Assembly (NCBI GenBank): GCA_963789395.1
Contig: CAWBKP010000010.1
Coordinates: 7,351 to 71,350 of the forward strand
DNA: 64,000 nt
From: an uncultured delta proteobacterium
GTDB taxonomy: Bacteria; Desulfobacterota; Desulfobacteria; Desulfobacterales; Desulfatirhabdiaceae
Reading direction: 5' to 3'
The number at the start of each line of letters is the position of its first letter. The first letter of the stretch is position 1. Shown one piece after another: positions 16,687 to 54,582 of the stretch. The position numbers and the translations under genes were made by a program. The notes beneath the pieces are model-generated. The model saw only the letters and a program-made list of their open reading frames with translations, was not told the origin of the DNA and ran no database searches.

Positions 16687-16690
16687 AATG

Positions 16691-33323: not shown

Positions 33324-34298
33324 ATGAGAAAAAGGATCTTCTTCATCTGCGGTTCGATGAATCAGACTACTCAGATGCATCAGATTTCCAAGCACCTTTC
33401 CGACTACGCGCATGCGTTCTCGCCTTTCTACTGCCAGGGTTTTGACGAGATTCTTCGAAAATTCGGGTTGACCGAGTTCACGATCGCAGGCAACAAAACC
33501 GCGGGACGCTGCCGGACGTATCTGGAGAATCATGGCCTGCCCATCGACTTCCAGGGAAAGAAACGGCCCTACGACCTGGTGGTTACCTGCTCGGACGTAT
33601 ACCTTCAAAAGAATATACGAGGCAACAGGATCGTACTGGTTCAGGAGGGGATTATCGACCCGGAATCCGTCATGTATCATCTCGTCAAGCGTTTCCGATT
33701 TCTTCCCCGATGGATGGCGGATACGGCGATGACCGGCCTCAGCGATGCATACGCGGTTTTCTGTGTGGCAAGCGAAGGATACCGCGATTTATTCATCGGA
33801 AAAGGCGTGCGTCCCGGGAAAATCGTCGTTACGGGAATACCCAATTTCGATGACTGCCGGCAATATCTGACGAACGACTTTCCCTACAGGCACTATGTAC
33901 TGGCCTGCACATCCGCGCTAAGGGAGACATTCCGCCGCGAGGACCGCGTATCCTTCATACGAAGGGCTGTAGATATCGCCGGCGGCCGGCGGCTCATCTT
34001 CAAGCTTCACCCGGCTGAAAATGTCGGGCGCGCCACCCGGGAAATCCGGGCGCACGCTCCGGGAGCTTTGGTGTTTGCAGCGGGGAGCGCAGAAGAAATG
34101 ATCGCCAATTGCGATGTCCTGATCACCCGCTTTTCATCGACCGCCTTCGTCGGCGTTGCGCTCGGCAAGGCGACTTATTCGGACTTCGATACCGACCAAT
34201 TGCGTCGACTGATGCCGCTTCAGAACGGCTCGGCGGCTGTTAACATCGCCAATGTCTGCCGCCGGATTCTTGAGGAAAAACAGGATGAGCGCATTTGA
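33324..34298 (+). CDS. GT-B fold glycosyltransferase-like protein (MurG/MGDG-synthase, GT28-like)
   Basis: Start at ATG 33324 after GGAGGA (MRKRIFFICGSMNQT...). The blocks KIVVTGIPNFDDC and ANCDVLITRFSSTAFVGVALGK resemble the GT28 linker and C-terminal nucleotide-sugar motifs. The family assignment is tentative. Confidence 0.4.
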   Translation: MRKRIFFICGSMNQTTQMHQISKHLSDYAHAFSPFYCQGFDEILRKFGLTEFTIAGNKTAGRCRTYLENHGLPIDFQGKKRPYDLVVTCSDVYLQKNIRGNRIVLVQEGIIDPESVMYHLVKRFRFLPRWMADTAMTGLSDAYAVFCVASEGYRDLFIGKGVRPGKIVVTGIPNFDDCRQYLTNDFPYRHYVLACTSALRETFRREDRVSFIRRAVDIAGGRRLIFKLHPAENVGRATREIRAHAPGALVFAAGSAEEMIANCDVLITRFSSTAFVGVALGKATYSDFDTDQLRRLMPLQNGSAAVNIANVCRRILEEKQDERI

Positions 34299-34450
34299 AA
34301 ATCAGCCGGCCGGGACTTTCATACGGCTTGTCATCCCATCCGGCACTGAAACGCTTTGATTTGGCTATTGACATGAAATATCATACAGGATTGATGTCGG
34401 ATAAATCAGTTGCAGTAAAATATTCGAGTTGCCTTGATTAAAGAGAAAAC

Positions 34451-35395
34451 ATGATTCTCAATGCCCGGGACAAAATTACCAGGGGTTTGTTGTCATTGGC
34501 CAAGACCCCCTTGGTCTTTTCTCCTTATTACCGATACCATCTTCCATTGCCCGCCGTGATCCTGATCGAGAATACAAACTGCTGCAACGCGCAGTGTGTC
34601 ATGTGCCCCCGCGAGATGCTGACCCGAAAACGCGGCTTCATGGAGTTCGGATTGTTCGAGAAGATCATACGTGAAGTGTCCAGCGTGAAACGAAAACCCG
34701 TCGTGCATTTGCATGGGTTTGGAGAACCGCTGCTGGATGAGTCGTTGCCGGAAAGGATCAAGCTTGCAAAAGCCTGCGGGATAAAGCATACTTATCTTGT
34801 TACCAATGCTTCGTTACTGTTCCCCGAGAAAGCCGGAAAGATCATCCGTGCGGGACTGGACGTGATGAAGATCAGTTTTTACGGCACCGATCAAGAATCG
34901 TATCGCGCCACCATGAAACGGCTTGATTTCGATGTGGCGCTTGACAACATCAAAGAGTTTGTGAGGATAAGAAAGGATCTGAACAAACGAACTCCGAAAT
35001 TGATTCTTCAATACCTGCCTCAGGAAGCCAATGGAGGCAAGACAAAGGAATTTCAATCTCTGTGGCACTCTGTCCTGGATAAGCGGGCGGGCGACTGCCT
35101 GAATTTCTGTGCTTTGGACAATTTTGGAGGCGGGAGAGCTTACAACCGTTTGGGAGAAAAAATAGTGTCCGTCTGTTTTTACCCCTGGTCAGCCCTGTCG
35201 GTGCTCTGCGACGGCAGGGCCGTTACCTGTTGTGTGGATTACAATGGCGTTCAGGGCGTCGGAAATCTGAACTTCCAGACCGTCAAGGAAATCTGGAACG
35301 GGCCTGAGTTGTCCCGGATCAGGAGCAGCTTTGGAAAAACGGATTATAGCGCGTTTCCGACCTGTCTTTGTTGCGACTGGGTACGCAGGCGGTAG
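34451..35395 (+). CDS. radical SAM / SPASM domain protein
   Basis: CNAQCVMC (CX3CX2C) radical SAM motif near the N-terminus and a Cys-rich C-terminal SPASM-like region (CFYPWSALSVLCDGRAVTCCVDY ... FPTCLCCDW). Confidence 0.8.
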   Translation: MILNARDKITRGLLSLAKTPLVFSPYYRYHLPLPAVILIENTNCCNAQCVMCPREMLTRKRGFMEFGLFEKIIREVSSVKRKPVVHLHGFGEPLLDESLPERIKLAKACGIKHTYLVTNASLLFPEKAGKIIRAGLDVMKISFYGTDQESYRATMKRLDFDVALDNIKEFVRIRKDLNKRTPKLILQYLPQEANGGKTKEFQSLWHSVLDKRAGDCLNFCALDNFGGGRAYNRLGEKIVSVCFYPWSALSVLCDGRAVTCCVDYNGVQGVGNLNFQTVKEIWNGPELSRIRSSFGKTDYSAFPTCLCCDWVRRR

Positions 35396-35517
35396 GCTCC
35401 GGATGATTGAATTGCCGATTCTAACTGCGGTTGCTCTGTGAAGAAAAATGACGATTTCTGACATCCAACCGGGTGCATGTTTTTTATTAATTTAACTTTC
35501 TTTACAGGGAATGATAA

Positions 35518-36498
35518 TTGAAGGTTTTGGTAACCGGCGCCACAGGATTTATCGGGAGCCACCTGGTGGAAGCCCTCGTTCAACGCGGAGCCCAAATCAG
35601 ATGCCTTGTACGGGACAAGAAGCAGTTAGGGTGGGTGAAAGACCTCCCCGTTGAGTTTGTTGCCGGAAATTGTCAGGAGAAGCATTCTCTAACACAAGCC
35701 GTGAAAGACATCGATCAGGTGTTTCACCTTGCGGGTGCGACAACAGCTGTCAAAGAAAAAACGTATTTCGAAGTGAATGCCCTGGGAACGGAGAACCTTG
35801 TCAAAGCCTGCATCGAAATCAATCCCCGTCTCAATAAATTCATCCATATTTCAAGCCAGGCAGCAGCAGGTCCGTGCCTGAGCGGCGGGAAGAAAAAGGA
35901 AACCGACGCTTGCGAACCGGTTTCGCCCTACGGGAAAAGCAAATTGCTGGGAGAGGAATTGGCTTTGTCCCGCTCCCGTGAGCTTCCGCTGCTTATACTG
36001 CGGCCATGTGCCGTTTACGGGCCCAGGGACAAAGGCTTCCTTGCGCTTTTCAAGTGCCTCTCCAGGAATATCCTTCCTTGCCTTTCGGGGATCGATCAAC
36101 ACATCAGCATGTGTCATGTTCAGGATCTTGTCCGGGCAATTCTTTTAGCTGCCGATACCCAATCAGCGCACGGAAATATATTTTTTATATCAGATGGGCA
36201 GGATTATCGGACGGCGGAAATCGGTGATATCTTTGCGGAAGCAATGAAGATCAATGCACTGCAGCTTCATATTCCCAAACAGATACTATTCGGCGTGGCC
36301 TTTTTTGCAGAATGTCTCTCAAGGGTCTCCGGAAAGCCATCCATCATGAACAGAGGCAAGGCAGCGGAAATGATCCAGCAGAACTGGGTTTGCGACATTA
36401 CCAAGGCCAGGACTTTATTGGGTTTTGAGCCCCGGATTTCTCTTGCCCGGGGAGCTGAATCAACCGTTGCCTGGTACAAAAATGAAAATTGGCTGTAA
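35518..36498 (+). CDS. NAD-dependent epimerase/dehydratase family SDR
   Basis: TTG start. VLVTGATGFIGSHLV Rossmann motif and catalytic YGKSK (YxxxK). 326 aa, typical of extended SDRs. Confidence 0.85.
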   Translation: MKVLVTGATGFIGSHLVEALVQRGAQIRCLVRDKKQLGWVKDLPVEFVAGNCQEKHSLTQAVKDIDQVFHLAGATTAVKEKTYFEVNALGTENLVKACIEINPRLNKFIHISSQAAAGPCLSGGKKKETDACEPVSPYGKSKLLGEELALSRSRELPLLILRPCAVYGPRDKGFLALFKCLSRNILPCLSGIDQHISMCHVQDLVRAILLAADTQSAHGNIFFISDGQDYRTAEIGDIFAEAMKINALQLHIPKQILFGVAFFAECLSRVSGKPSIMNRGKAAEMIQQNWVCDITKARTLLGFEPRISLARGAESTVAWYKNENWL

Positions 36499-36545
36499 CG
36501 ATATTGTCGGGAAGTTTCGCGGTTAACCTTATAAAAAGAGCAAGC

Positions 36546-37667
36546 ATGGCCGTCATCGAGATCATTACCGTGGAAAGCAGATCGGATCTTAAGGCCTTTA
36601 TCGATCTGCCCTGGAAAATATATGCGGAATACCCCAATTGGATCCCTCCCCTTAAGAAGGAAATTCGCCGGCTGCTGGATCCCGGCAAACACCCTTTCTG
36701 GGAGTTTTCCGAGCGCATCCTCTTTCTGGCCCGACGGGGTTCGGAAACGGTGGGAAGGATCGCGGGCATCATCGACCGCAATCATAACGCGTTTCACAGC
36801 GAACAGATGGGCATTTGGGGATTCTTCGAATGTGCCGACGATCCGGAAGTCGCGTCGGCCCTCTTCTCTTCCGCAGAGACGTGGGCGCGCCAAAAGGGGA
36901 TGTCCTTCATCAGAGGCCCGCTCAACCCTTCCACCAATTACGAGTTGGGGCTTCTCATCGAGGGTTTCAATTACCCGCCCGCCATCATGATGGCCTACAA
37001 TCCGCCGTACTATCCGGGGTTGGTCGAATCGTGCGGTTTCGTCAAAGAAAAGGATCTGCTGGCCTTTCTGATTGATGGCGATTACCGGCTCCCCGAATGG
37101 ATGGATCACCTTGCCGAATGGATCGCCAAAAAAGGCGGTATCCAAATCAGGCGGTCTCGTCCAAAGGATGCGGATGCCGAGTTTGCCCTGATCAGGGAGA
37201 TATACAATGCCTCCTGGTCCGGCAATTGGGGGTTTGTCCCCTTAAGCGATCATGAGATGCGGGACATTCAAAAGAATGTGATGGCATTTGTGGATCCGGA
37301 TATGGTTTTCTTCATTTATTATGGAGATGAACCCGCAGCATTCTGTGTTATCTTTCCAGACATCAACCCGTTGCTCAAACGTCTCAATGGGCGGATCGGC
37401 CTGCTGGGCTTGCTGAAGTTCCTGCTATATCGGCGGGAGATCAACGGATTGCGGCTGTTGATGTTTGGCGTCAAGGAGAAGTACCAGCAATTGGGACTCC
37501 CCATGCTGGCCTTTCACCACATATATGAGGTTGTGAGGAAGAAAGAAAAATATCGCTCCCTGGAGCTGGGCTGGACCCTTGAGGACAATGCATCGATCAA
37601 CTCTTTGATAGAGGAAGCCGGCGCAAAAATATACAAAAAATATCGCATATTCAGAAAGTCTTTATGA
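36546..37667 (+). CDS. GNAT-like N-acyltransferase (about 370 aa, two-lobed)
   Basis: Start at MAVIEIITVES. The blocks GRIAGIIDRNHNAFH..., WGFFECADD and the C-terminal LLMFGVKEKYQQLGLPMLAF (QxxGxP/A-like acyl-CoA loop) resemble large GNAT-fold acyltransferases. Assigned from memory, moderate confidence. Confidence 0.5.
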   Translation: MAVIEIITVESRSDLKAFIDLPWKIYAEYPNWIPPLKKEIRRLLDPGKHPFWEFSERILFLARRGSETVGRIAGIIDRNHNAFHSEQMGIWGFFECADDPEVASALFSSAETWARQKGMSFIRGPLNPSTNYELGLLIEGFNYPPAIMMAYNPPYYPGLVESCGFVKEKDLLAFLIDGDYRLPEWMDHLAEWIAKKGGIQIRRSRPKDADAEFALIREIYNASWSGNWGFVPLSDHEMRDIQKNVMAFVDPDMVFFIYYGDEPAAFCVIFPDINPLLKRLNGRIGLLGLLKFLLYRREINGLRLLMFGVKEKYQQLGLPMLAFHHIYEVVRKKEKYRSLELGWTLEDNASINSLIEEAGAKIYKKYRIFRKSL

Positions 37668-37742
37668 TCAAGCACCGGATTTCCGGGATGCGGGATTTGA
37701 TATCGATGGTTCTATTGACGACAGCCAAATGAGAAATACAGA

Positions 37743-38578
37743 ATGAAAAGGAAAGTAGCCGAACGCGTATATATAGCGCGGCTCCTCGTGGTGATGAATT
37801 GCTGACAGGGGTTGCGGCAGGCTGCGCGCACCGGATCCACGCTCCGATGCAACCCGATGGCTGGAGTGCCCAGCCTATCGTGATCATGTGCCGCTTTACC
37901 CCCGATGCCGACCTGGATCCCGCCACCGGAAAGCCCGTGGGAGACGAAGGGTATTTTTTTTATATCCTGACCCAACCTGCCAATTGGGATTTCAGCGATG
38001 CCTCGTCGCTTCTCTTCTCAATTTGGCTGCATCCGTCGGCGCATAGCTGGATCATCCTGGAAAGCCCCGGGAATCGTCAGGAATTCGGCCACACCGGCAA
38101 CTTCGGGCAAGAGAAACCGCGCTACCATGACGGTGTGATGCAAAGGGTTCGGGAGGGAGATCCCGATCCAATCGCTTATTTGTGGCAGCCGATGTCCGAT
38201 GGCCAGTTCCAGATCGGCAAGCCCGGTCGCCCCCCTGCGTTCGTCTGGAAAATGCCGATTACCCGACGACGGTATCAAACGATCGAAGAATACGTAACGC
38301 AGCGGAAGTACGATCTGTTTGACTTGAGGACCGGCAACTGCACCGATTTTGTGATGGAGACAGCGGTGCTGGCGGGCATCAATCTGACCTACCGTATCCA
38401 CCTCACCTTGCCGCCTGAAGCAAGGTTCTTGGGCCGGACGCTGCGTGTTTGGACAGATCCGCAATACCGCATACTGGAGTTCGGTACACCCGAAGTTCTG
38501 GAGGTGGACCTGCGCCAGCTTGCCCGGATGGGAATCGGCAGTGACGCCACCGGGTGGTACCTGTCTTTGAAACACTGA
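37743..38578 (+). CDS. lipoprotein of unknown function with an NC-x-x-F Cys motif (possible NlpC/P60- or LRAT-like fold), 5' frameshift
   Basis: ATG 37743 gives MKRKVAERVYIARLLVVMNC*. Adding one T at TT 37799-37800 fuses it to ORF 37799-38578 and creates a lipobox (LLVVMNLLTGVAAGCA). The motif is LRTGNCTDFVMETA. Confidence 0.45.
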
Positions 38579-38644: not shown

Positions 38645-41281
38645 ATGTCGGCTGAACATCGCGCTCCAATCATCGCTTTCGTTTGGCGGCCCGAGGAGAT
38701 GACCCCGCCTGTAATCCAAATGGCGCATCAAACAGGGAGCAGGGCCATCTTCGATTTTTCCATGATGGGGGTGGATGCGCTGCGATCTTCCCTGCAAAAA
38801 GCCGGCCCCGACGGCCAGATCAGGGATATCAAGATTTCAGCTGCTGCATTTATGGAACCGTCTTTGGGACAGATATTACCCAATACAGGCGTCCAAAACC
38901 TTTGGATCGAATGTCACCCGCAGTTTTTCCAGGGAGATCCTTCCACGTTTCTACAGAGATTGAGGGAATTGCCGCAAAATTACCGCCTCTTCCCGATTTT
39001 CGGGGACCTGAATCTCCTGACGACTATTTTGACAGATGGCCCGGAAATCGGGCGCATCGTCCTGAAAGGAAGCGAGGCATCCGGATTCGTAAGCAGTGAG
39101 ACGACCCTGACGCTTTATTCAGCGGTCAAGGAAATGCTGCGACGCCGATCGAAGTTTTTGGACATCCTCATCTGGGGAAGTGTTTTCACTCCTGAGGCGG
39201 CTGCGGCATTTTTGTCCACCGGAGCCACGGGGATCGTCTTCGAGAGCCTCCATTGGCTGACAGACCTGGTTGCTGTTGATGATCTCCAACGCCGGCGGCT
39301 CTCCAACCTCCGCCTGGATTCAACCGATCTGGTCGGACTGGACCTGCAGGTTCCCTGTCGCATTTTCAACAAGGGAAACTCGATCGCGTTCAAGGAGATC
39401 AAAAGTTTCGAAAACGCGCTGTGCGGAGCAAGGATCACGGAGGAAAGCCGCCGATCCTTCGAGAACCGAGTGAGTATTGGGACCCGCCACCCTCTGGAGA
39501 GTGCTTTCACCCCGGGCGAGACCATCCCTCTGGGTGTGGAGGCAGCCTTTGCCGCATCCTTTGCCGAGCGTTTTGGAACGGAAACCGAGGAAGCCGTGAA
39601 GTCCTTCATGAACGAGATTCACAGCTCATGCCGCCAGGCTGTTATAAAAAATGACTGCTTTTTGAACAGCCCCGTCGCCGCAGAGATGGGATCCAAATAC
39701 CCTTTTATCCAGGGAGCCATGACCTGGATCACCGATGTCCCTGAGTTTGCCTCACGGGTTGCCGAGGCCGGCGGGTTGCCCACAATCGCCCTGGGCATGA
39801 TGGACGCCGAAACCCTTGATCGGAAGCTGGGACACCTGCCGGAGATCATGGGCGGGCGCTCTTATGCCGTGAATATCGTCTCTCTGGCGGAGAACCCTTT
39901 CAGGGAGACCCAACTGGCATGGATAAAGAAACACCGGCCCCGTTTTGTGGTGATCGCGGGAGGGGATCTCTCCTTTTTAAGGGATTTGTTGGCATGCGGA
40001 CTGGAGATCATGTATATCGCCCCGAACGAGGCATTGTTGCGACTCGCTCTTGAAGCCGGCGCCCGGTATGTGATCTGCGAGGGATATGAGGCCGGCGGGC
40101 ACGTTGGCCGCCATAGCACGCTTACCCTTGCTCAAATGGTACTGGATCTGAAACGAATCAAACCATCCCTGTTCCAGAATTGCCGCATGATTCTTGCCGG
40201 GGGAATTTTCAACCGGGAAACCGCATTCATGGCAGCCATGCTCGGAGCAGATGCCATCCAGATGGGCACCGCATATCTGGCCACCCGTGAAATCATTGAA
40301 ACGGGAGCCCTGACGGCGCTCTATCAGCGGATGGTCCTGGAATCACCTCCTGGCGGAACGGTCGTTTCAGGCAGGGACACCGGACTTCGGGTGCGCTCCT
40401 TGAAGTCCCCGAGAACAGCCGCAGTTTCATCCCTGGAGCGGGAATTTGCAGCGGATCACCCAGACGAGAGTTCCTTCCGCACGAAAATAGAAGAGATGAC
40501 GGCGGGAAGCCTCTTCACCGCGGCCCGCGGCATGGAAAGACCCGGCGGGGCGCCTCTGGATGAGCGGACCTGCCTGGAACGCGGACAATTCATGAGCGGG
40601 GCCAGTGCCGGCCTTATCAGCAATGTCCTGAATCTGCCGTCCTTCCATCGCGAGTTGGCTGAAGGCCATCTTTTGCTGCATCAGCCCGGGGGTTCCACCG
40701 AGAGAATGCCGGAACCTTCACCCGGCGCTTCGCGCCCCATGAAACCCCCATCCAGCGGGATTGTCCAGGGACTGATGAAACCGGCGCTGCATAAAGACGC
40801 CCATGAAAGGGTTGCCATCACCGGGATGAGTATTCTCAATACCCTGGGGGATAGTCCGGAAGGGGTCTGGGCGGCAAGCCTGGCCTTGAAGAGCGGGATT
40901 ACCCTGGTTCCGTCTTCCCGGTGGGATCACACTCTTTTTTATGATCCCCGCCCGTTTGCTCCGGACAAGACTTACTGCAGGGTGGGCGCCTTCCTGGACG
41001 TTCATATCTCCCGAGGCGAACTCGGAATTTCCCCGCATGATTTCCGAACCATGACCGATGCCACAAAGCTCACCCTGTGGCTGGCGGACAAGGCCATCCG
41101 GGAGTCCGGCATCCTGGAGTCGAACATCCCACGGGAGCGAATCGCAGTCCTTGTCTCCCAGAACTCCGGAGAAGCGGCGGCAACCTTCACCGATCTTAAT
41201 CATAAGGGCGCATGTTCACGACATCCTGGCCGATATCAATCGGGTGCTTCACCTCAGTCCGGATCAGATGCGCGCCGCTGA
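38645..41281 (+). CDS. megasynthase part 1: two PfaD/nitronate-monooxygenase-like enoyl reductase domains plus the start of the KS
   Basis: The second ER domain is clear (YPFIQGAMTWITDVPEFASRVAEAGGLPTIALGMM ... CEGYEAGGHVG ... MGTAYLATRE). The first roughly 330 aa form a degenerate copy of the same fold. The KS begins at RVAITGMSILNTLGDSPEGVW. The true reading passes into ORF 41058-45983 at about 41197. Confidence 0.8.
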   Translation: MSAEHRAPIIAFVWRPEEMTPPVIQMAHQTGSRAIFDFSMMGVDALRSSLQKAGPDGQIRDIKISAAAFMEPSLGQILPNTGVQNLWIECHPQFFQGDPSTFLQRLRELPQNYRLFPIFGDLNLLTTILTDGPEIGRIVLKGSEASGFVSSETTLTLYSAVKEMLRRRSKFLDILIWGSVFTPEAAAAFLSTGATGIVFESLHWLTDLVAVDDLQRRRLSNLRLDSTDLVGLDLQVPCRIFNKGNSIAFKEIKSFENALCGARITEESRRSFENRVSIGTRHPLESAFTPGETIPLGVEAAFAASFAERFGTETEEAVKSFMNEIHSSCRQAVIKNDCFLNSPVAAEMGSKYPFIQGAMTWITDVPEFASRVAEAGGLPTIALGMMDAETLDRKLGHLPEIMGGRSYAVNIVSLAENPFRETQLAWIKKHRPRFVVIAGGDLSFLRDLLACGLEIMYIAPNEALLRLALEAGARYVICEGYEAGGHVGRHSTLTLAQMVLDLKRIKPSLFQNCRMILAGGIFNRETAFMAAMLGADAIQMGTAYLATREIIETGALTALYQRMVLESPPGGTVVSGRDTGLRVRSLKSPRTAAVSSLEREFAADHPDESSFRTKIEEMTAGSLFTAARGMERPGGAPLDERTCLERGQFMSGASAGLISNVLNLPSFHRELAEGHLLLHQPGGSTERMPEPSPGASRPMKPPSSGIVQGLMKPALHKDAHERVAITGMSILNTLGDSPEGVWAASLALKSGITLVPSSRWDHTLFYDPRPFAPDKTYCRVGAFLDVHISRGELGISPHDFRTMTDATKLTLWLADKAIRESGILESNIPRERIAVLVSQNSGEAAATFTDLNHKGACSRHPGRYQSGASPQSGSDARR

Positions 41282-45983: not shown

Positions 45984-46317
45984 TGCGCGGACAAAGCGTC
46001 TGCCGGCAGACAGGTGATTTTAAAAATCTGCGGAACGTTCATTATCAATACTCTCCCTATCTTTTAGAAGCCATTTTGCAATTGGCCGGCCTCCACTGCA
46101 TTGTCATGAATATAACGGAGAAACGATCCATGATTCCCATGGAGATCGGGGAGATGCGCTTTTCCCGAAAATGCCGGGCGGGGGAACAGATCACCCTGGA
46201 GGCCCGCATGCGGGCGCAGAATGCGCAAAGTCAGCTTGGGACGCCCGAGGACTTGATGATCAAGGCCGCACCATCATGCAGGTTTCCAATTTGGTGATGC
46301 ACTGGATTTCAGGCTGA
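45691..46317 (+). CDS. megasynthase part 3: remainder of the DH domain, spread over three frames
   Basis: ORF 45691-45963 reads ...LCEVSLATQALSPTGKLADRFTPHCKGQVILGGGEG ... KWYKKHSGLKGRYRVLES. ORF 45980-46297 reads ...HYQYSPYLLEAILQLAGLHCIVMN ... IGEMRFSRKCRAGEQITLEARMRAQ. A final frame gives WDARGLDDQGRTIMQVSNLVMHWISG*, ending at 46317. The frameshifts are near 45670, 45955 and 46225. Confidence 0.65.
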
Positions 46318-46430: not shown

Positions 46431-47162
46431 GTGGATATGGGGAAGGATTGCCAGGGCATTACCGTCCATGCAGTGAGTTTTGATCATCGCGGGGGACCCG
46501 CATTCTATGCATCCTTGCCGGGTGATGGTGAAAACCACAAAGGGTGCCGGTCGAACGGGGAAGAAGACAAGAATCGCCTGGTCTCCTTTCTGTTGGATCA
46601 CGTTACGGGGATGGATAGTCCTCTTGGGAAATGCCGGCTTTCGTTCGATAGCGATCCTTTTCCCATTCACGTGGTCCGCGACCCGCTCGGCAGGCCGCAT
46701 CTCCTGTTGGGAGAACATCGGGGTCCGGCCATCTCCTTCAGCGAGGGTGGCGGGAAAATCTGGGCCGCGCTTTGCGGGGATGCATCCGATATCGGCATCG
46801 ATGTAGCAACGGCCGATGAATTTCAGGGAGGATACCCCTGTCACCGGGTCTTTCATGACCGGGAGATCCAATATGCCTTAAGGTTGACGGGGGGAGACAT
46901 GGAAAAGGCTTCAGCCCTGCTCTGGTCCATCAAGGAAGCGGTTGTCAAGGCCCTGGGATGCGCATTCCATCTTGTGGCGCCCCGGCAAGTTCACATCTAT
47001 CCTTCGACAGGGGGGGACGGGGGATATACTTTCCCCGTGTGCTTATCGAGGAAGGCCCTGGCACGGTCTCCCACGAGCACAGGCTGTTTCATATGGGTGC
47101 GTTCGTTTCCCCAGGCGAAGATGTGGCTTTCCATTGCCCTCTTGAGCTGGCAGCCACGTTGA
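46431..47162 (+). CDS. 4'-phosphopantetheinyl transferase (Sfp-type)
   Basis: Motifs DPLGRPHLLL, ISFSEGGG, DIGIDVATADEF and WSIKEAVVKALG (the PPTase W/F-x-x-K-E-A-x-x-K signature). Confidence 0.8.
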   Translation: MDMGKDCQGITVHAVSFDHRGGPAFYASLPGDGENHKGCRSNGEEDKNRLVSFLLDHVTGMDSPLGKCRLSFDSDPFPIHVVRDPLGRPHLLLGEHRGPAISFSEGGGKIWAALCGDASDIGIDVATADEFQGGYPCHRVFHDREIQYALRLTGGDMEKASALLWSIKEAVVKALGCAFHLVAPRQVHIYPSTGGDGGYTFPVCLSRKALARSPTSTGCFIWVRSFPQAKMWLSIALLSWQPR

Positions 47163-47215: not shown

Positions 47216-48168
47216 ATGATGAAAGAAACTGAATACGCCATCGAAGTCGAAAAACTGACGAAGCGTTATGGGGATTTGCAGGCAGTTAACGACATCTCGT
47301 TCAACGTCCGGAAAGGCGAGGTTTTCGCCTTGTTGGGCCCGAACGGAGCCGGCAAGACCACCACTGTCGAGATCATCGACACCATCCGCACGCCCACGTC
47401 GGGAAACGTTCGCCTTCTGGGAATGGACGTCACAAAGAAGAAGCGCGACATCGTCCCCCGCATCGGCGTCCTCCCGCAGGGGTTCAACTCGTTCGATAGG
47501 ATAACCGTCAGGGAAACCGTGCAGTACTACTCGCGGCTTTTCTGTTGCAGGAACGTCAATATCGACGGGCTGATAGCGCTTGTGAATCTCAATGAAAAGG
47601 CCAAAGAGCAATACATGAATCTCTCCGGTGGATTGAGACAGCGCCTCGGGATCGCAATTGCGCTCGTGAACGACCCCGAGGTCGTGTTTCTAGACGAGCC
47701 GACGACAGGACTCGACCCCCGCGCCAGGCGCGAGGTATGGGACGTCCTGCTGGGCCTGAAGCAGGCTGGAAAGACGGTATTTCTCACCACGCACTACATG
47801 GAGGAAGCTGAGCTTCTTGCGGACACTGTAGCAATTATCTCCAAGGGGAAGATCATCGCCATGGACTCTCCCGTGCAGCTCATCGAAAGCAACGCGGATT
47901 ACCTGGTCCTCACGCTGCAGTCTGTGGATGAAAAAACTTTTGAAGTCGTAGGGAAGATGGGCTTCGCGCCGGAACTTACCAACACAAAAGCCTCAATGTG
48001 AAGGTGGCGGGCACGGACGACATCCGGAAGATACTGAACGCCATGGAAGACTCCGGGGCCGCGTTGCTCAGCATGGACGTTCGCAAGCCCAACCTCGAAC
48101 AGGTCTTCCTGAATCTTACCGGCGAGGCGCTCCACGAAGGCGCTTCCGTGGGAAAGGGGGTGAAATGA
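47216..48168 (+). CDS. ABC transporter ATP-binding protein (ABC-2 exporter type), one frameshift
   Basis: Walker A GPNGAGKTT, signature LSGGLRQR, Walker B VVFLDEPTTGLD. ORF 47216-48001 stops prematurely. One extra A in the A-run 47986-47989 restores ...TNTKSLNVKVAGTDDIRKILNAMEDSGAALLSMDVRKPNLEQVFLNLTG..., ending at 48168. Confidence 0.85.
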
Positions 48169-49279
48169 ACCTGCGCGTTGTTGTCGCAAGCCTCGTCGTG
48201 AGCCTCAAGAGCTTCTACCGCGAGAAGACCACGATGTTCTTCACAACTACCTTCCCGATACTCCTGATACTCGTGTTCGGCACGATTTTCCAGGACCAGG
48301 ACAAATTGAATTTCGACCTTTGCCTGCAGGACCTCGACCAGACAGAAACCACGGCGGAAATCGCAAAGACCCTGTCCCTTACCGGGAAGTTCAACGTCAC
48401 CAAGGTCGATCCTACCATCGATGCCGCACATTACGCCAAGACCAACCAGATAAACCTTGTTGTCATCATTCCCAAAGACTATGAAAAATCTTGTATGCAA
48501 TATCTGCAATCCGGCGATCCCGATGCATTCGTTACCATCCAGTTTGTCTACGATCCCAGCTCCAATCGGTGGATACGAAGATGCGAATTCTGGACATTAT
48601 ATTCGCCAAGCTGAACCAGGGGATGTCCGGAAAGCCGCCGTTCGTCAAGACGGAAGAAATATCGATTCTCACCAGGAAATACCGGTTCATCGAGTTCTTT
48701 ATCCCCGGCGTCATCGCAATGGCGGTGATGACCGCAAGCCTGTTCGGAACTGTGAACGTGAACACGGAGCTGCGGCAGAAGGGCATCATCCGGAAACTGT
48801 CCACCACGCCCATCACCCGCTCGGACTGGATACTGTCTAACATTCTATACCAGTTCATACTTGCGGTCATATCCACCACGGCAATGCTTATAGTGAGCTA
48901 CGCCGTGTTTGACGTCAAATTGCAGATAAACGCCTGGCTCCCGCTGTTCATCGTGCTTGACGTTTTTACGTTCGTTGGTATCGGGTTGATACTCACCCGC
49001 ATCGTGAAGGAGGCGCAGAGCGCCGCCGCCGCAGCCAACGCCCTCATATTCCCGATGATGTTCCTCTCGGGGAGCTTCTTCCCGCTCGAGATGATGCCGC
49101 GCTTCTTGCAGACGTTCGCCAGGGCCCTGCCTCTGTACTATGTGAACGAGGGTCTTCGGGCATCCATGGTGTTTCACGACAACGCCGCCGCACTGAATTA
49201 TGCCGCGATAATCGGAGCCTTCGCGTCACTGGTCTTCGTTCTGGGTCTCATCGCCACCAAATGGGAAGAGGGTAATTGA
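48165..49279 (+). CDS. ABC-2 type transporter permease, one frameshift
   Basis: ORFs 48165-48614 and 48491-49279 join if CC at 48562-48563 is read as CCC (...VYDPSSQSVDTKMRILDIIFAKLNQ...). The C-terminal half has the ABC-2 membrane domain (FFIPGVIAMAVMTASLFG ... FPMMFLSGSFFPLEMMP). The ATG overlaps the ATPase stop. Confidence 0.8.
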
Positions 49280-51039
49280 CAGCCAAACATCCCTTTCGCG
49301 CCATCACGCAAGCACCCCATGCCCGTGTCATTACCGCCTTGCTTGCAGCAACGCTCGCTGTCCTTATCGATTTCATTTTCAGATTCAGCAATTACCGGGA
49401 TCTACTGCATCTGCTCCCGGACGCCGGAGCCATGAAGTTTTCGGGCGCACTCACGCTGGTATTTCTCCAGGTGATCGCTCTCTTTTATCTCATGCTTCTT
49501 CTTCCCAGGCTTCTCCGTGCGGTCGTCTTCCTGTTTTTTGTTTTTGTCCTGGTCGTCCAATTCTCCTACTGGCTGACACTTAACCAGTTCATGACAAGCA
49601 CCGACCTGTTTCTCGCCCTGAATGTCAGCGCCGACAATTTCGAAGGCGCCATTTCAAGCTTCCTCAAGCCGCTTATCTTCTGGTATGCGCTTCCCTACGC
49701 ACTCGTACTATCCACACTGATTTTCGTCCCAGTCAGATCCACATTCCGAAAGTCCCTCGCGCTCAGCCTCCTGCCCGCATTCTACCTGCTCTTTTCCAAT
49801 TCCGCCCTCTTTCTTTACGCGGCTGAAGGCAATTTCCATCTGAATCCCCTGACCTCCCTCCTCCGTACAGCACTTCATTACGAATTTGAAACCCTCCGAG
49901 AATATCAGGGCCCCCGGGAAGACCTGCCGGTATTTCCTGCCTCCCAACGGCCACATAACAGCATCATCTATATCATCGATGAATCCATTCGAGGCAGCAA
50001 TCTCAGTCTGAACGGCTACCCGCGGGCCACCACACCGTTTCTTCAATCTTTAGAGACCCAGGGACGCCTCAAGAATCTCGGCATTTGCGTTGCTGCCGGC
50101 ACCTATTCCTACCTCAGCAATGCTTATCTGGTTACCGGCCACAACGCATTTCCCGACGACACTTTTCGAACATTCAAGAACCCGACCCTCTTTGATTACG
50201 CTAAAAAAATGGGTTACGAAACGATCTATATCGATGTCGACAGTGGCTATCTTTCCAAGCTTCTGGAAACCGCCCGGGAGGGTCACGTGAGATCCCTGGA
50301 CCGGTGGATGACCGATCAATCGTTCAGGGATCGCCATATCGATCTTGAAACCACGAAAGACCCGGGCGTCGCACGCTTTCTGAGTAGTCTTCTGAACGAA
50401 AGAGGCGGTTATTTCATTCTCGTCAACAAGAAGGGCCTTCATTTCCACTATCGCAATACCTACCCGGATGATCCGGCCTTTACGTTTTGGGAGCCGGTTA
50501 TGGAAACATCGGAACCCATCGACCCCAGCCCGACCGGCCGCGAAAAGCTCGTTAATACCTATGACAACGGGATTCGCTTTCAGGTGGATGAATTCTTCCG
50601 GGAGTTCGTGTCCGATACAACGAATCAGAATTATGTCATCCTTTACACTTCGGACCATGGCCAGACGTTGGCCGAGCATGGGCAGGTGTATACCCATGTA
50701 AAGTCTGACAAGGTGATCGTCGACGTACCGGCGTTTCTCGTAGTCGGTGAGCGATATGACAAGAAGGGTTCCTTAGCCGGCATTCGCCCCGGCATCCGGG
50801 TTTCCCATCTGAACAATTTCGCGACCATCCTCGATCTGATGGACGTACCGTTGTCTTTGCGGGTTCGTCCCTACGACAAATCGATTTTTTCTTTGACGTC
50901 CGAGGACAACAGCGAGCGCTACTATATGAGCGGTTCTCTTCATGGCTCCGGCGATTACGTGGTGAAGATGATACCGACACCACCGGATGAGGGATGGGGC
51001 GTTTCGAGACTTCTCGGCAAGGTCCTCAAGTCTGAATGA
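49276..51039 (+). CDS. membrane-anchored sulfatase-family transferase (phosphoethanolamine/phosphoglycerol transferase-like)
   Basis: Five or six N-terminal TM helices, then an alkaline-phosphatase-superfamily domain (IIYIIDESIRGSNLSLNGYPRATTPFL ... ILYTSDHGQTLAEHGQ). The TTG start overlaps the permease stop. Confidence 0.7.
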   Translation: MTAKHPFRAITQAPHARVITALLAATLAVLIDFIFRFSNYRDLLHLLPDAGAMKFSGALTLVFLQVIALFYLMLLLPRLLRAVVFLFFVFVLVVQFSYWLTLNQFMTSTDLFLALNVSADNFEGAISSFLKPLIFWYALPYALVLSTLIFVPVRSTFRKSLALSLLPAFYLLFSNSALFLYAAEGNFHLNPLTSLLRTALHYEFETLREYQGPREDLPVFPASQRPHNSIIYIIDESIRGSNLSLNGYPRATTPFLQSLETQGRLKNLGICVAAGTYSYLSNAYLVTGHNAFPDDTFRTFKNPTLFDYAKKMGYETIYIDVDSGYLSKLLETAREGHVRSLDRWMTDQSFRDRHIDLETTKDPGVARFLSSLLNERGGYFILVNKKGLHFHYRNTYPDDPAFTFWEPVMETSEPIDPSPTGREKLVNTYDNGIRFQVDEFFREFVSDTTNQNYVILYTSDHGQTLAEHGQVYTHVKSDKVIVDVPAFLVVGERYDKKGSLAGIRPGIRVSHLNNFATILDLMDVPLSLRVRPYDKSIFSLTSEDNSERYYMSGSLHGSGDYVVKMIPTPPDEGWGVSRLLGKVLKSE

Positions 51040-51075
51040 TGAAAATATAAAAGCTGGGTTTTTCGACAGTTTGCG

Positions 51076-54000
51076 TTATTTTTCAATCCGTTGCAGGGCT
51101 TCCAGTTCCGAGGCGACGACATCCAGAGCAAAGCGGATCTGATCGGGTGTATGGGTGCAATTGACAAAAAAGCGCAGACGGGCGGAGTTATCAGGGACGG
51201 CCGGATAGACCATGGGCAGGGCATCGATCCCTTGCCGGAGGATGGATTGTGAGAGTCTTAGCGCCTTCAAGGAATCTCCGACGATGACTGGAATAACCGG
51301 GGAAAAGCTGCTGCTGGCGCCGGTATTCAGACCCCTTTCCCGGGCGAGCATGAGAAAAAACCCGGAGAGCTCATGGAGGCGCATCACCCGTTGGGGCTCC
51401 TTCCTGAGCAAACGAATGGCGGCCAGTGCTGCTGCGACATTCGACGGAGGCATTCCCACACTGTAGACAAAGCCCGGCGCGGTGTATTTCAGGTATTCAA
51501 CAAGGGCTCCGGATCCGGCGATATAGCCTCCGCAGCTGGCAAATGACTTGCTCAATGTGCCCATCCAAAGTTCGACTTCGGCGGGAGCGATTCCAAAGTG
51601 CTCACCAATACCCCTGCCTCTTTTCCCCAATACGCCGATGGAATGCGCCTCGTCCACCATCAGAAAGGCTCCGTGCCGTTTCTTGATCTTTATAAATTCA
51701 GGAAGTTCCGGGATATCGCCATCCATGCTGTAAAGGGCTTCGATAACCACGAGGGCCCGTCGGAAACGGGGTCGCAACTCCTTGAGAATCATGTCCAGGG
51801 CTTGCCAGTTGTTGTGGGGAAAAGAAAGGTATGTTGCCTGGGAAAGCTGGCATCCCTGGAGAACACTGTTATGAATCAGGGCGTCATGAACAATGAGATC
51901 GGACTTGCCGAAGAGATGGCCGATTGTAGTCACGTTCGTGGCATGTCCGCTGACAAAAACGAGGCTGTCCTCTGTGCCGATCAAGTCAGCAATTTCTTTC
52001 TCAATCTCACGATGCAGGGGCCTTTCGCCTGAAACCAGACGGCTTGCCGAAACCGAAGTCCCATAGCGGTCGATAGCATCTTTGGCGGCTTGAGATACGA
52101 CCGGATCTCCGGACATACCCAGGTAATTGTACCTGGAAAAGGTGATGAACGCCCGGCCTTTTGCAGTTGCGTCTTTTGAATCGGTCTCTTCGTGCACCCT
52201 GAAGTAAGGGTTGTCGATACCCCGCGCCTTCATCCCCTGCATGATCTGTTGCAGGTTACGGTATTCGGGGTAATCCACAAACGGCAGGCACTCCGGTTGA
52301 ATCTCACGGACCTCTCTCTGGTCAACACCCCTTTCTGCCGGCTCTCCGGACTGACGGTCGGATGATAGCACTTTTCCCAAAGGTCCGTCTTTGGCTTCAA
52401 GCCCTCTTCCCAAAGTCCTTTGCCAGAGAACGTGAGCCGTCAGATCGGAAATGCCGGCTCCCAGAAAGAGCGCTTCGACGGGAAATTCGATTCCCATGTC
52501 TTCTTCAATCGTCGTCTTCAGCTCTGCTGCCATCAAAGAATCGATGCCAAGCGTATTCAAGGGACTGTGCACATCTATCCTGGTGAACGAGATTTTGAGG
52601 AGATCCGCCACTTTTTTAGCAATGCGAGCCTCAATGACCCGGTTGAGCCAGGAAACGGCTTCCGCACCCATGTCCTCAGATTCCAAATCGCCGACTTTGA
52701 GCGTTGAAGCATCCAGACCGATCGAAACCGATGCGTCGTTCCCCAGATGGACGGGTCGGCATTCTTCCAATGCCTGGAGGGTTATCTCCGGATCGATTTT
52801 TTGGGAATACCCGACGCACTGGGCAACGGCCCTCAAACTGCCCTGGATAAAATGCTCCCGACAAAGGCGGCGCTGGATCTTTCCACTGGTCGTCTTGGGA
52901 AGACCGGCGGTCTTGAGCAGCACAACTGCGTAAGCGTGGATTTCATGCTCTCGTGACACACTTTGGCGAATGGCCCCGATCACCGCCTCTGCATCCAGCT
53001 TTTTGATGTATCGTCGCTCGATTTCTTGCACCACCACCAGTCGTTCCTCATCCCCGACTTCAACGGAAAACGCCGCCCCGCAGCCTGGTCGCAGGGCCTC
53101 ATGGCTTCTTTCCACGGTCCTCTCGATGTCTTGAGGATAATGATTGAGGCCCCGTATGATGATAAGATCCTTCCAACGGCCCGTGACAAAGAGCTGGCCG
53201 TCATGGATAAACCCGAGGTCTCCCGTGCGCAGATAAAGACCTTTACCACCATCGGCAAGCCTTGCCCGGAAGACGTGATCCGAATCTTCAGGACGATGCC
53301 AATATCCTTGTGCAACGCTTGGCCCTGCGATCCATATTTCTCCAATCGTATCGATTTTGCAGGGGGTCTGCTTCTCCGGATCGACGATAACAATCTCATT
53401 GCCAGGCGGTGCTCCCCCATTTGCTACCAGCTCGAAGTCATGCTCCCGATCTTCTGCAGAAAGGACCAAACGACCGGATTGTAACGACTGCGCGTCCACC
53501 TTCAGGAATGTCGGTGCGGCGCTTTTGCTGCCTCCAGAAGCGATAAGGGTGTTTTCCGCAAGGCCATAACAGGGCAGAAATGCTTTTTGCCGAAAGCCGC
53601 AGGACTCGAAAGCCGCAGCAAAACGGCGGAGCGTCTCCCCCCTGACCGGCTCGGCACCGTTGAAAGCAACCTCCCAACTGCTCAGATCAAGTCCTGATTT
53701 CTGCTCCGGCGTGATCTTTCGAACACAAAGATCGTAAGCAAAATTCGGTCCACCACTTGTCGTGGCCCTATAGCGTGAGATGGCCATCAGCCAGCGAAGC
53801 GGTTTTTGGATGAAGTGAACAGGTGACATCAAGATCATATCGGCGCCAGCATAAACAGGCTGAACGATCCCTCCGATCAATCCCATATCGTGGTATGGGG
53901 GAAGCCAGAATATGCCGCGGTTACTCGATGAATACCCAAAGACTTCATGGATAACGGATGAATTATGGAGCAGGTTCCCATGGCTGACCATTACGCCCTT

Positions 54001-54582
54001 GGGATTTCCGGTGGAACCGGATGTGTATTGGAGAACAGCAAGGGAATCAGCACCCAGGGAAGGTTCTTTCCAGACATTTGCCAGATCGTCGGAAATGGTG
54101 TCGGTTAATATCCATTTGAGAGCAGCCAACCCGGGAGTCTTATTAATTTGGTGTCTATATGCTTCCAGGGTAGAAGCCGTAGTGAGTGCAATTGTGGGTT
54201 CAGCGTCGGCTACTGTTGCTACAAGGTTTGCCAAAAACTGGTTGGAATGGGGGGGATAGGCCGGCACGGCGACCAAGCCCGCACACAAGCACCCGAAGAA
54301 TGCCGTGGGAAACTCGATGCCTGGAGGGTAGAGCAAAAGGATCCTCTCTCCCGGAGAGAGGTGAGATTGGAGATGCGCCGCAATGGCGAGTGCCCTGCGT
54401 TCCAGTTCACAATATGTCAGTCTGGTTTCTTGTGATTCTCCATCCTTGAGATAGGTGTAGAGGGTTTTTTCTCCCTGCTCTTGAACCCTCCGGCGCAGCA
54501 GGTGGATCAGATTCGGCAGCCTATTCGTGCAGATTGTTGAGCTCGGTCCGGGCTGATTACCACGGCTCATATAGTCTTTCAT
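51076..54582 (-). CDS. tri-domain fatty acyl-AMP ligase - ACP - alpha-oxoamine synthase (serine palmitoyltransferase/AONS-like, PLP-dependent)
   Basis: 1168 aa, intact. FAAL/adenylation domain (LQYTSGSTGNPKGVMVSHGNLL, YLRTGDLGF, PKTTSGKIQR), ACP (LNTLGIDSLMAAEL), and class II aminotransferase/AOS domain (YNYLGMSGDP, HATNVTTIGHL, DEAHSIGVLG, GTLSKSFASCGGY with the PLP lysine). Confidence 0.9.
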   Translation of the reverse strand: MKDYMSRGNQPGPSSTICTNRLPNLIHLLRRRVQEQGEKTLYTYLKDGESQETRLTYCELERRALAIAAHLQSHLSPGERILLLYPPGIEFPTAFFGCLCAGLVAVPAYPPHSNQFLANLVATVADAEPTIALTTASTLEAYRHQINKTPGLAALKWILTDTISDDLANVWKEPSLGADSLAVLQYTSGSTGNPKGVMVSHGNLLHNSSVIHEVFGYSSSNRGIFWLPPYHDMGLIGGIVQPVYAGADMILMSPVHFIQKPLRWLMAISRYRATTSGGPNFAYDLCVRKITPEQKSGLDLSSWEVAFNGAEPVRGETLRRFAAAFESCGFRQKAFLPCYGLAENTLIASGGSKSAAPTFLKVDAQSLQSGRLVLSAEDREHDFELVANGGAPPGNEIVIVDPEKQTPCKIDTIGEIWIAGPSVAQGYWHRPEDSDHVFRARLADGGKGLYLRTGDLGFIHDGQLFVTGRWKDLIIIRGLNHYPQDIERTVERSHEALRPGCGAAFSVEVGDEERLVVVQEIERRYIKKLDAEAVIGAIRQSVSREHEIHAYAVVLLKTAGLPKTTSGKIQRRLCREHFIQGSLRAVAQCVGYSQKIDPEITLQALEECRPVHLGNDASVSIGLDASTLKVGDLESEDMGAEAVSWLNRVIEARIAKKVADLLKISFTRIDVHSPLNTLGIDSLMAAELKTTIEEDMGIEFPVEALFLGAGISDLTAHVLWQRTLGRGLEAKDGPLGKVLSSDRQSGEPAERGVDQREVREIQPECLPFVDYPEYRNLQQIMQGMKARGIDNPYFRVHEETDSKDATAKGRAFITFSRYNYLGMSGDPVVSQAAKDAIDRYGTSVSASRLVSGERPLHREIEKEIADLIGTEDSLVFVSGHATNVTTIGHLFGKSDLIVHDALIHNSVLQGCQLSQATYLSFPHNNWQALDMILKELRPRFRRALVVIEALYSMDGDIPELPEFIKIKKRHGAFLMVDEAHSIGVLGKRGRGIGEHFGIAPAEVELWMGTLSKSFASCGGYIAGSGALVEYLKYTAPGFVYSVGMPPSNVAAALAAIRLLRKEPQRVMRLHELSGFFLMLARERGLNTGASSSFSPVIPVIVGDSLKALRLSQSILRQGIDALPMVYPAVPDNSARLRFFVNCTHTPDQIRFALDVVASELEALQRIEK

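Follow-up and report, generated by a model that had tools for sequence, protein, structure and literature searches.

A candidate ceramide-type lipid gene cluster of an uncultured Desulfobacterota bacterium, with a fused FAAL-ACP-alpha-oxoamine synthase and an acyltransferase of the bCerS/YghO family coupled to a megasynthase

What lipid is made by a gene cluster in which homologues of the bacterial ceramide enzymes stand beside a type I megasynthase, and which of its enzymes supplies which acyl chain? What is known of bacterial sphingolipid synthesis is of recent date and comes nearly all from aerobic Proteobacteria and Bacteroidota; the cluster considered here belongs to an uncultured delta proteobacterium of the sulfate-reducer type, from the Desulfatirhabdiaceae (phylum Desulfobacterota, or Thermodesulfobacteriota), and occupies 21 kb (positions 33324-54582) of a 64,000-nucleotide stretch of contig CAWBKP010000010.1 (positions 7,351 to 71,350 of the forward strand; GenBank assembly GCA_963789395.1), which is referred to, at its whole length, as the window. 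Open reading frame (ORF) listing and hidden Markov model (HMM) scans assigned ten gene functions to the cluster, all in the order and orientation given by an earlier note made from the sequence alone, and the domain matches are far beyond chance (AMP-binding, E value of 1.6e-66; Aminotran_1_2, 1.1e-40; Acyl_transf_1, 1.7e-43; KR, 4e-33; Epimerase, 9e-39). That note had read the genes as a ceramide toolkit, and its reading is largely supported by co-conservation and by the homologies of the GNAT-type acyltransferase, the short-chain dehydrogenase/reductase (SDR), the fatty acyl-AMP ligase (FAAL), and the alpha-oxoamine synthase (AOS). We lean, with some confidence, toward the view that the product of the cluster is an exported ceramide-like lipid, namely, an N-acylated long-chain 2-amino-3-hydroxy base whose head group would probably be a sugar or a phospho group. 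Among named homologues, the closest are in metagenome-assembled genomes (MAGs) of Desulfatirhabdiaceae, Syntrophobacteraceae, and "delta proteobacterium," and two related MAGs come from the SPRUCE peatland experiment. Relatives are cited by locus number where this is needed: L001 is a contig 97% identical to the window, L003 to L007 are from Syntrophobacteraceae, L008 is a more distant Syntrophobacteraceae locus, L009 and L010 are planctomycete, L012 and L013 come from an Acidobacteria MAG and a Geobacteraceae MAG, respectively, L019 is a Streptomyces triad, and L101 and L102 are from other Desulfobacterota.

Homologues of all five functions of the proteobacterial ceramide pathway were found, and three of them are fused in one polypeptide, as the note had proposed. 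The fusion is encoded by an intact gene on the minus strand (51076-54582), and its 1168-aa product consists of a FAAL, an acyl carrier protein (ACP) domain (PP-binding, 7.8e-12), and an AOS resembling serine palmitoyltransferase (SPT). The FAAL domain matches the FAAL families of NCBIfam at E values of 1e-126 to 1e-133 and is 35% identical to E. coli AasR, and the PP-binding domain sits between FAAL and AOS, so that the ligase is accompanied by a dedicated carrier in the manner of AasR and AcpR. By experiment, E. coli AasR acylates only AcpR for Spt, and the activities of AasR, AcpR, and Spt are all established (PMC9386255). Homologues that share all three domains over the full length number in the thousands; an exact-sequence look-up of the window protein returned no match, the nearest relative being 99% identical. 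That the AOS is fused to a FAAL speaks for a donor with a long acyl chain, and because planctomycete genes for the same architecture (approximately 52% identity) stand alone with no megasynthase nearby, the tri-domain enzyme is probably self-sufficient.

The AOS domain carries the pyridoxal phosphate (PLP)-binding Lys, the His, and the Asp-x-x-His residues in alignment with SPT structures. When it was compared with all PDB sequences, the highest scores were those of the S. multivorum SPT (245 bits), plant LCB2a (220 bits), and Sphingomonas SPTs (210 to 216 bits), with BioF and KBL at approximately 192 bits, ALAS at 183 bits, and CqsA at 81 bits. In a bootstrapped neighbor-joining tree of 21 sequences, from which ALAS and CqsA were omitted so that these two are placed by PDB scores only, the fused AOS domains form a single clade with 100% bootstrap support; BioF, KBL, and ThAOS separate from all other sequences in 66% of bootstraps, and the fused clade joins BioF in 3% and the BioF-KBL-ThAOS group in 2%. 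On these scores and this tree, the domain falls on the SPT side and does not appear to group with the biotin or quorum-signal synthases, the outcome that the earlier note had named as fatal to its proposal, and the designation "SPT-like" is supported. Directly upstream of the tri-domain gene and on the same strand lies a gene for an AAA+ ATPase (54859-56142), which is kept at this place in L001 and L005 and is absent from it in L002; it may be cotranscribed with the FAAL-ACP-AOS gene.

The candidate for the amide-forming enzyme is a 373-aa protein encoded on the plus strand at 36546-37667, described earlier as a large GNAT-like acyltransferase. The Pfam scan gave it only a subthreshold match to Acetyltransf_1 (E value of 0.0017), and what proved firm instead is its kinship with bCerS and YghO: it is 36% identical to E. 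coli YghO (9e-74), 34% to bCerS of Roseomonas, and 32% to bCerS of Sphingomonas, each over residues 1 to 373, and 36% identical over its whole length to the GNAT of a Streptomyces AOS-GNAT-SDR triad. The YghO, Sphingomonas, and Roseomonas matches were obtained by tblastn against annotated plasmid and chromid records, and orthologues from these three organisms stood in for the Caulobacter sequences CC_1154, CC_1164, and CC_1162. The Sphingomonas and Roseomonas homologues, annotated as N-acetyltransferases and in some cases mislabeled "dATP pyrophosphohydrolase," adjoin lptF/lptG and genes for Spt, ACP, and reductase; in Sphingomonas parapaucimobilis, the homologue comes after reductase-ACP-aminotransferase (spt) and lptF-lptG, and in E. 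coli PN43 lptF-lptG are succeeded by genes for AOS, ACP, epimerase, and fatty acyl-AMP ligase and then by yghO. All of these loci match the Caulobacter gene map, in which CC_1165 to CC_1162 are aasR, cerR, acpR, and spt, CC_1156 and CC_1155 are lptF2 and lptG2, and CC_1154 is cerS (PMC11324152); CC_1154, yghO (ECD_02850), and Swit_3908 are also listed as counterparts under the name "aca" (PMC9386255). Homology over the full length thus clearly places the 373-aa protein in the bCerS/YghO family as a putative acyl N-acyltransferase, and the possibility, entertained at the outset, that it is unrelated to bCerS can be dismissed.

A candidate for the CerR-like 3-ketoreductase is encoded immediately before it. 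This extended SDR of 326 aa (35518-36498, plus strand) is 40% identical to the reductase of Geobacteraceae spt clusters, 37% to that of Streptomyces, and 30% to that of the E. coli ECD_02852 type (2e-38); its best NCBIfam matches, HpnA and the OleD 2-alkyl-3-oxoalkanoate reductase, are both below cut-off. The SDR gene lies directly upstream of the bCerS-like gene in the window and in L003 to L005, L007, L021, L022, and L048, and is adjacent to it on the opposite strand in L012. Where the flanks reach far enough, as in the window, L005, L007, and L012, the FAAL-ACP-AOS gene is found in the same cluster as the bCerS-like gene.

Downstream of the acyltransferase, the plus strand encodes an iterative type I megasynthase that resembles both fatty acid synthases and polyketide synthases (PKSs) and reaches approximately 2555 aa after frameshift correction (38645-46314). 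HMM matches give the order degenerate enoyl reductase (ER)-like domain, FabK-type ER, ketosynthase (KS), acyltransferase (AT), ACP, ketoreductase (KR), and PS-DH dehydratase (DH). The domain order read in the earlier note is upheld with two corrections: the gene is not a single ORF in this assembly, being interrupted by four frameshifts, and the first of the two ER domains does not stand, for residues 1 to 340 are a weak and degenerate duplicate (24% identity, 2e-4), with EAGGH changed to EASGF, alongside the FabK/NMO-type ER at residues 348 to 661. Inspection of the corrected protein by eye located the Cys/His/His residues of the KS, the GHSLG and AFHS motifs of a malonyl-type AT, and YAAAN in the KR; the domain scan found one ACP and no thioesterase (TE). 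An Sfp-type 4'-phosphopantetheinyl transferase (PPTase) gene follows (46431-47162, plus strand; ACPS, 2.1e-10), an order that is constant in related loci.

The lipoprotein, megasynthase, and ABC transporter genes are interrupted by frameshifts, seven in all and each of a single base. The four in the megasynthase, mapped against L002 and L001, lie at approximately 41195, where the KS domain is split over two frames, 45670, 45958, and 46233; there is one each in the lipoprotein (approximately 37797), the ABC ATPase (approximately 47985), and the ABC-2 permease (approximately 48565-48587). L001 differs from the window at exactly those four megasynthase sites by single-base, mostly nonhomopolymer indels and is in frame there and at the ABC sites (it stops short of the lipoprotein), and it is in turn frameshifted at the equivalents of window positions 44024 and 49802, both of them unbroken in the window. 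Genes of the window outside the cluster are likewise broken, a sigma-54 activator being split in two (23147-24668) and G6PD being truncated (59666-60697), and intact megasynthases of 2446 to 2770 aa occur in more distant relatives. For these reasons the frameshifts are most likely errors of long-read assembly and not marks of pseudogenes. Decay of the megasynthase to a pseudogene was considered and rejected, since the break sites differ between the window and L001, other genes are broken too, and the catalytic motifs are retained. The contig names of relatives (of the type "contig_12189") would fit a long-read assembler, and the window looks like an unpolished assembly of this kind; because indels break many of its genes, any ORF-based reading of it needs frameshift-aware translation.

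The make-up of the megasynthase raises the question of whether the cluster has anything to do with sphingolipids. It shares with the Pfa-type synthases PfaA and PfaD an NMO/FabK-type ER, the KS-AT-ACP-KR series, a PS-DH, and a neighboring Sfp-type PPTase (Shulse and Allen 2011, PMC3098273), and a "secondary lipid" synthase of the Pfa or Ole type, making polyunsaturated fatty acids (PUFA) or olefin precursors and with an OleD-like SDR, would account for this union of a PfaD-like ER with PfaA-like domains and for the subthreshold OleD match of the SDR (108 bits against a cut-off of 580). Uncharacterized pfa-like clusters are, moreover, known in Deltaproteobacteria (PMC3098273). Unlike those synthases, however, the window protein fuses the ER to the PfaA-like part, has a single ACP where tandem ACPs are typical of PUFA synthases, and scores 371 bits against the TIGR02813 (PfaA) cut-off of 1010; the cluster contains neither pfaB nor pfaC (KS-CLF and FabA-type DH) and no OleA, OleB, or OleC, and its setting is one of amino-lipid genes. 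Such an origin also leaves the bCerS homologue and the FAAL-ACP-AOS unexplained, and we regard it as very improbable.

The neighborhood of the megasynthase points to a probable partner. A scan of JGI metagenomes with the GNAT family yielded 511 confirmed stretches, from which 80 loci (L021 to L100) with 10-kb flanks were retained. In every one of these for which sequence beyond the GNAT gene was available, that sequence holds the megasynthase and after it, as far as the flank extends, the PPTase and ABC genes; the GNAT-megasynthase-PPTase order recurs in L011 to L013, and a lipoprotein gene lies between GNAT and megasynthase in about half of the loci. It is because the megasynthase invariably comes after the bCerS-like gene that we propose it as the supplier of the N-acyl chain. 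The Geobacteraceae locus L013 is instructive (5620-17134; compare L079, L082, and L091): it has a stand-alone SDR-AOS-GNAT triad, a PAP2 phosphatase, and then a second bCerS paralogue, a lipoprotein, and a megasynthase. The GNAT of the triad is 42% identical to the window protein and the second, next to the megasynthase, is 78% identical, which argues that the window-type GNAT subfamily belongs with the megasynthase; the presence of the two ceramide synthase-like genes side by side suggests two different N-acyl chains or acceptors.

Co-conservation extends to the cluster as a whole. A scan of a genome collection with narrow peptide patterns returned 5 loci, and in these five and in several contigs, from Syntrophobacteraceae and related MAGs, the glycosyltransferase (GT), SDR, GNAT, megasynthase, PPTase, ABC, and ABC-2 genes are kept together with a convergent FAAL-ACP-AOS gene. 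The Acidobacteria locus L012 has FAAL-ACP-AOS, SDR, GNAT, megasynthase, PPTase, and ABC genes; L008 (57% identity) retains megasynthase, SDR, and FAAL-ACP-AOS, along with three radical SAM genes; and L101 and L102 (approximately 56%) have FAAL-ACP-AOS, SDR, and a bCerS-family GNAT that is 30 to 32% identical to the window protein, with no megasynthase. A core is thus kept in Syntrophobacteraceae, Acidobacteria, and other Desulfobacterota, contrary to what would be seen were the genes together in the window only.

From domain content, homologies, and co-conservation we infer the following route, in which the chemistry, the assignment of chains to modules, the amino acid substrate, and the head group are all proposals. 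The FAAL would adenylate a free fatty acid and load it onto its own in-cis ACP, from which the fused SPT-like PLP domain would condense the acyl chain with an amino acid to a 3-keto base, equivalents of AasR, AcpR, and Spt thus acting in cis within a single polypeptide; serine is one candidate substrate, and alanine or glycine would yield a 1-deoxy base. A cytoplasmic SDR would reduce the 3-keto group before or after acylation. Meanwhile, the adjacent PPTase would prime the megasynthase, which with its full reductive loop, one ACP, and no TE would assemble on its ACP a dedicated acyl chain that is probably long and for the most part saturated; the bCerS/YghO-family enzyme encoded directly upstream would take this chain, release it, and form the amide. 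The GT-B transferase would add a head group, the ABC-2 transporter would move the lipid out of the inner membrane, and in the lineage of the window the EptA-like enzyme, the lipoprotein, and the radical SAM enzyme might modify it further. Going beyond this, we offer tentatively, as a stronger claim that may well prove wrong, that the bCerS-family enzyme is an ACP-dependent "ceramide synthase" releasing the chain of a PfaD/PfaA-type megasynthase and that this module, with the fused FAAL-ACP-SPT, is a source of unusual ceramide-type lipids (very-long-chain, hydroxy, or 1-deoxy); to our knowledge, such lipids in anoxic sediments have at present no assigned producer or pathway.

The main rival to this wiring keeps the same enzymes and changes the destination of the megasynthase product: the FAAL-ACP would load a starter, the megasynthase would elongate it, and the AOS would off-load the chain with an amino acid to give an unusually long base, the bCerS-like enzyme drawing the amide chain from ordinary acyl-CoA or acyl-ACP. 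Priming of PKS modules by FAAL-ACP didomains is common, as in FadD32-Pks13; the megasynthase has no TE, and an AOS is able to act as a releasing enzyme; and megasynthase and FAAL-ACP-AOS occur together in L001, L002, L005 to L008, and L012. The precedent is PfSgaABC of Pseudomonas fluorescens MYb115, where the chain passes from an iterative PKS (SgaA) to an SPT-active AOS (SgaB), so that bacterial sphingolipid chains are known to come from a PKS-like enzyme (PMC12134224). The two-gene sgaAB cluster described there, with an SDR ketoreductase gene, sgaC, has in common with the window an iterative type I synthase, an AOS (SPT-active in MYb115), and an SDR; SgaB stands alone and receives its substrate straight from the PKS, the products reported are free sphinganines and phosphoglycerol sphingolipids, and neither a FAAL-ACP fusion nor a bCerS homologue is mentioned in the sections consulted (PMC12134224). 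The window megasynthase, in contrast, is PfaD/PfaA-like and linked to an N-acyltransferase gene rather than to an AOS gene. It is found invariably beside the GNAT and also occurs with a stand-alone AOS that has no FAAL-ACP (L013); conversely, FAAL-ACP-AOS occurs without any megasynthase in L009, L010, L101, and L102, and the AOS already has an ACP in cis. Because the megasynthase tracks the GNAT and not the AOS, we rank a PfSgaAB-like wiring lower and consider it unlikely.

Several observations nevertheless weigh against the route that we favor, in which the megasynthase feeds the bCerS-like enzyme and the fused protein makes the base. The AOS clade is deep, at 29 to 36% identity to every reference, SPT or not; its strongest grouping in the small tree is with plant LCB2a, which may be due to long-branch attraction; and no NCBIfam SPT model was matched at cut-off, the broad BioF model scoring 352 and the best SPT model 322. 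It is on account of this depth, and because no NCBIfam equivalog cut-off was reached, that we say "SPT-like" and make no claim of serine specificity. Caulobacter CerR is periplasmic (PMC11087976), and in the window SDR no signal peptide was visible by eye, the N terminus (MKVLVTGATGFIGSHL) entering the Rossmann motif at once; the protein may act like a cytoplasmic 3-ketosphinganine reductase instead. We know of no demonstration of acyl transfer from a megasynthase ACP to a bCerS-type enzyme. Finally, when the partners upstream of the GNAT-megasynthase module were counted over the 27 metagenome loci in which 6 kb or more upstream was available, 17 had no AOS, SDR, or GT there, so that the module may also serve other amine acceptors; two of the remainder were window-like, three had an SDR-AOS-GNAT1 triad of the Geobacteraceae type, two had a divergent AOS-SDR pair, one had an EptA-like (sulfatase) gene, and two had only a weak (26 to 28%) SDR-like match. 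In 6 of the 17 (L023, L029, L030, L037, L038, and L052), the upstream genes are unrelated and encode KaiC/KaiB-like proteins and PAS/sigma-54 regulators.

The frequency of loci with no AOS, SDR, or GT in the 6 to 10 kb upstream could also mean that two separate pathways are merely neighbors, with GNAT, megasynthase, PPTase, and ABC genes making some other amide lipid (such as an N-acyl amino acid or N-acyl polyamine) and FAAL-ACP-AOS and SDR making an unrelated amino alcohol or signaling molecule. The FAAL-ACP-AOS gene is convergent on the opposite strand and therefore a separate transcription unit, and in L004 the fused gene is apparently on the same 195-kb contig, yet not within 10 kb downstream of the megasynthase. 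The flanks of 10 kb, however, fall short of the position of the AOS in the window, approximately 13 kb downstream of the GNAT; the GNAT belongs to a family whose known members act in ceramide synthesis; and SDR, GNAT, megasynthase, and FAAL-ACP-AOS stay together across phyla, in the Acidobacteria locus L012 and in Syntrophobacteraceae (L003 to L007). Two separate pathways side by side therefore seem to us distinctly improbable.

If the single pathway that we prefer is set against the systems already described, its parts are familiar and their combination is not. The proteobacterial dihydroceramide pathway (Caulobacter CC_1165-1162 and CC_1154; E. coli BL21 ECD_02850-02854, including yghO) has homologues in the window for all five of its functions and follows the same logic, from free fatty acid to dedicated ACP to PLP-dependent condensation. 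In contrast to that pathway, the window fuses the first three proteins into 1168 aa that would act in cis, has an SDR that is apparently cytoplasmic, and contains an ABC-2 exporter in place of LptF/LptG paralogues; its bCerS homologue is of a subfamily of its own, invariably linked to a megasynthase of 2500 aa and a PPTase, and its host is an anaerobic member of the Desulfobacterota and not an alpha-, beta-, or gammaproteobacterium. The Spt-CerR-bCerS triads of Deltaproteobacteria, Actinobacteria, and other phyla (Stankeviciute 2022, as cited in PMC11334938; here L013 and L019) place the same three families next to each other, with 36 to 42% identity between the window proteins and their counterparts in the Geobacteraceae and Streptomyces triads; the triads have a stand-alone AOS and no megasynthase, the exception being L013, with a window-type GNAT and megasynthase alongside. 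Surveys have recorded Spt-like genes alongside bCerS and CerR in Desulfobacterota, and the metalipidomics of anoxic waters indicates Desulfobacterota as makers of unusual ceramides (PMC11334938). Full-text searches of the literature turned up no description of a FAAL-ACP-AOS/SPT fusion in such a context and none of a bCerS-subfamily gene tied obligatorily to a megasynthase of the ER-KS-AT-ACP-KR-DH type. Since the ceramide toolkit, the Pfa-like synthase, and the PKS-sphingolipid precedent are all known, we regard their combination here as a variant of bacterial sphingolipid synthesis. The cluster provides a concrete gene set for uncultured anaerobes, and the module occurs widely among environmental anaerobes; if the wiring proposed above is true, it would add to the known routes by which sphingolipid acyl chains are supplied, represent a new mechanism of chain release for type I synthases, and furnish genetic markers for the reading of environmental and sedimentary lipid records.

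The head group and the export of the lipid would be the concern of the remaining genes. The first of these, on the plus strand at 33324-34298 (324 aa, the start being set by homologues of 319 to 324 aa), had been called GT28-like. All 25 of the 25 family members examined have weak matches to TIGR04396 (down to 9e-10), the BFO_1060 GT, Glyphos_transf, and Epimerase_2, with MGDG_synth matched by 10 of the 25 at E values of 0.088 or more and UgtP by 4 at 0.043. No Pfam or NCBIfam model reached cut-off, a profile search of the PDB gave no match, comparison with E. coli MurG by hhalign was negative (probability of 0.5%), and the AlphaFold2 (AF2) model was poor (pLDDT of 41). What stands of the original description is thus membership in the GT-B superfamily, and GT28 itself does not; we treat the protein as a putative head-group glycosyl- or glycerophospho-transferase. 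Its gene adjoins that of the SDR in L003, L004, L021, and L022. Export would be the task of an ABC transporter ATPase (47216-48165; ABC_tran, 1e-30) and an ABC-2-type permease (48165-49279; ABC2_membrane, 2.4e-27), both on the plus strand and both with a change of frame that was made apparent by tblastn with the L002 orthologues of 317 and 370 aa, respectively.

Three further genes, for a radical SAM enzyme, a lipoprotein, and an EptA-like enzyme, lie outside the conserved core and are lineage specific. The EptA-like protein (49276-51039, plus strand; 587 aa; Sulfatase, 2.3e-20) is a putative membrane-anchored phospho-group transferase of the sulfatase fold: residues 22 to 524 match the phosphoethanolamine-lipid A transferase model NF028537 at 1.4e-23 (83 bits against a cut-off of 500), the DES...GT...SDHG motifs are, by eye, of the Thr-nucleophile type, and the gene is found only in L001, L005, and L087. 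The radical SAM/SPASM protein (34451-35395, plus strand; 314 aa; Radical_SAM, 1.8e-14; SPASM, 3.6e-12) matched no NCBIfam equivalog at cut-off and has orthologues only in L005, L021, and L022, with an inverted copy in L059. A role for it as an anSME-type maturase was considered and discarded, since the sulfatase-fold protein has those EptA-type motifs and, by eye, no C/S-x-P-x-R.

The lipoprotein (37725-38578, plus strand) is of a His/Cys family, and its signal peptide and lipobox were recovered in another frame by comparison with L005; the Cys motif noted earlier is real, the lipobox Cys being retained by 90% or more of the 45 aligned members. The family, a small one with relatives in L005 (3567-4427), L011 (11659-12516), and L013 (11134-11979), comprises 239 representative clusters in which His82, Trp84, and Cys181 are invariant and the lipobox Cys9 is nearly so. 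Searches of Pfam and of PDB sequences gave no match, and a confident AF2 model (pLDDT of 94) had no match in the PDB by Foldseek (best E value of 1.4); the modeled structure may represent a new periplasmic His/Cys enzyme fold, and a permuted papain-like His/Cys fold is an unproven guess.

Modification enzymes of a different kind appear around the FAAL-ACP-AOS relatives. B12-binding radical SAM enzymes of the DUF4070 type flank these genes in L101 (4732-9736), L102 (2837-8257), and L008 (4153-8602), and L101 and L102 have, besides their B12-radical SAM genes, a gene for a Glyco_transf_21 protein, the family that includes ceramide glucosyltransferases (GT21). They hint that other Desulfobacterota make glycosyl-ceramide-like lipids that are C-methylated or modified in some other way.

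Among the surrounding genes, one for a hybrid PAS/histidine kinase/receiver protein of 1405 aa (24956-29173, minus strand) is overlapped by an antisense ORF of 1032 aa (25211-28309, plus strand), which is most likely an artifact of this high-GC region (GC of 0.61) and no gene. Just upstream of the cluster, the minus strand carries genes for a DUF1207 protein (30470-31675) and a small BON-domain protein (32348-32692), and a BON-domain gene also adjoins FAAL-ACP-AOS in L002 (8987-9301); an envelope-related link between these neighbors and the cluster is possible.

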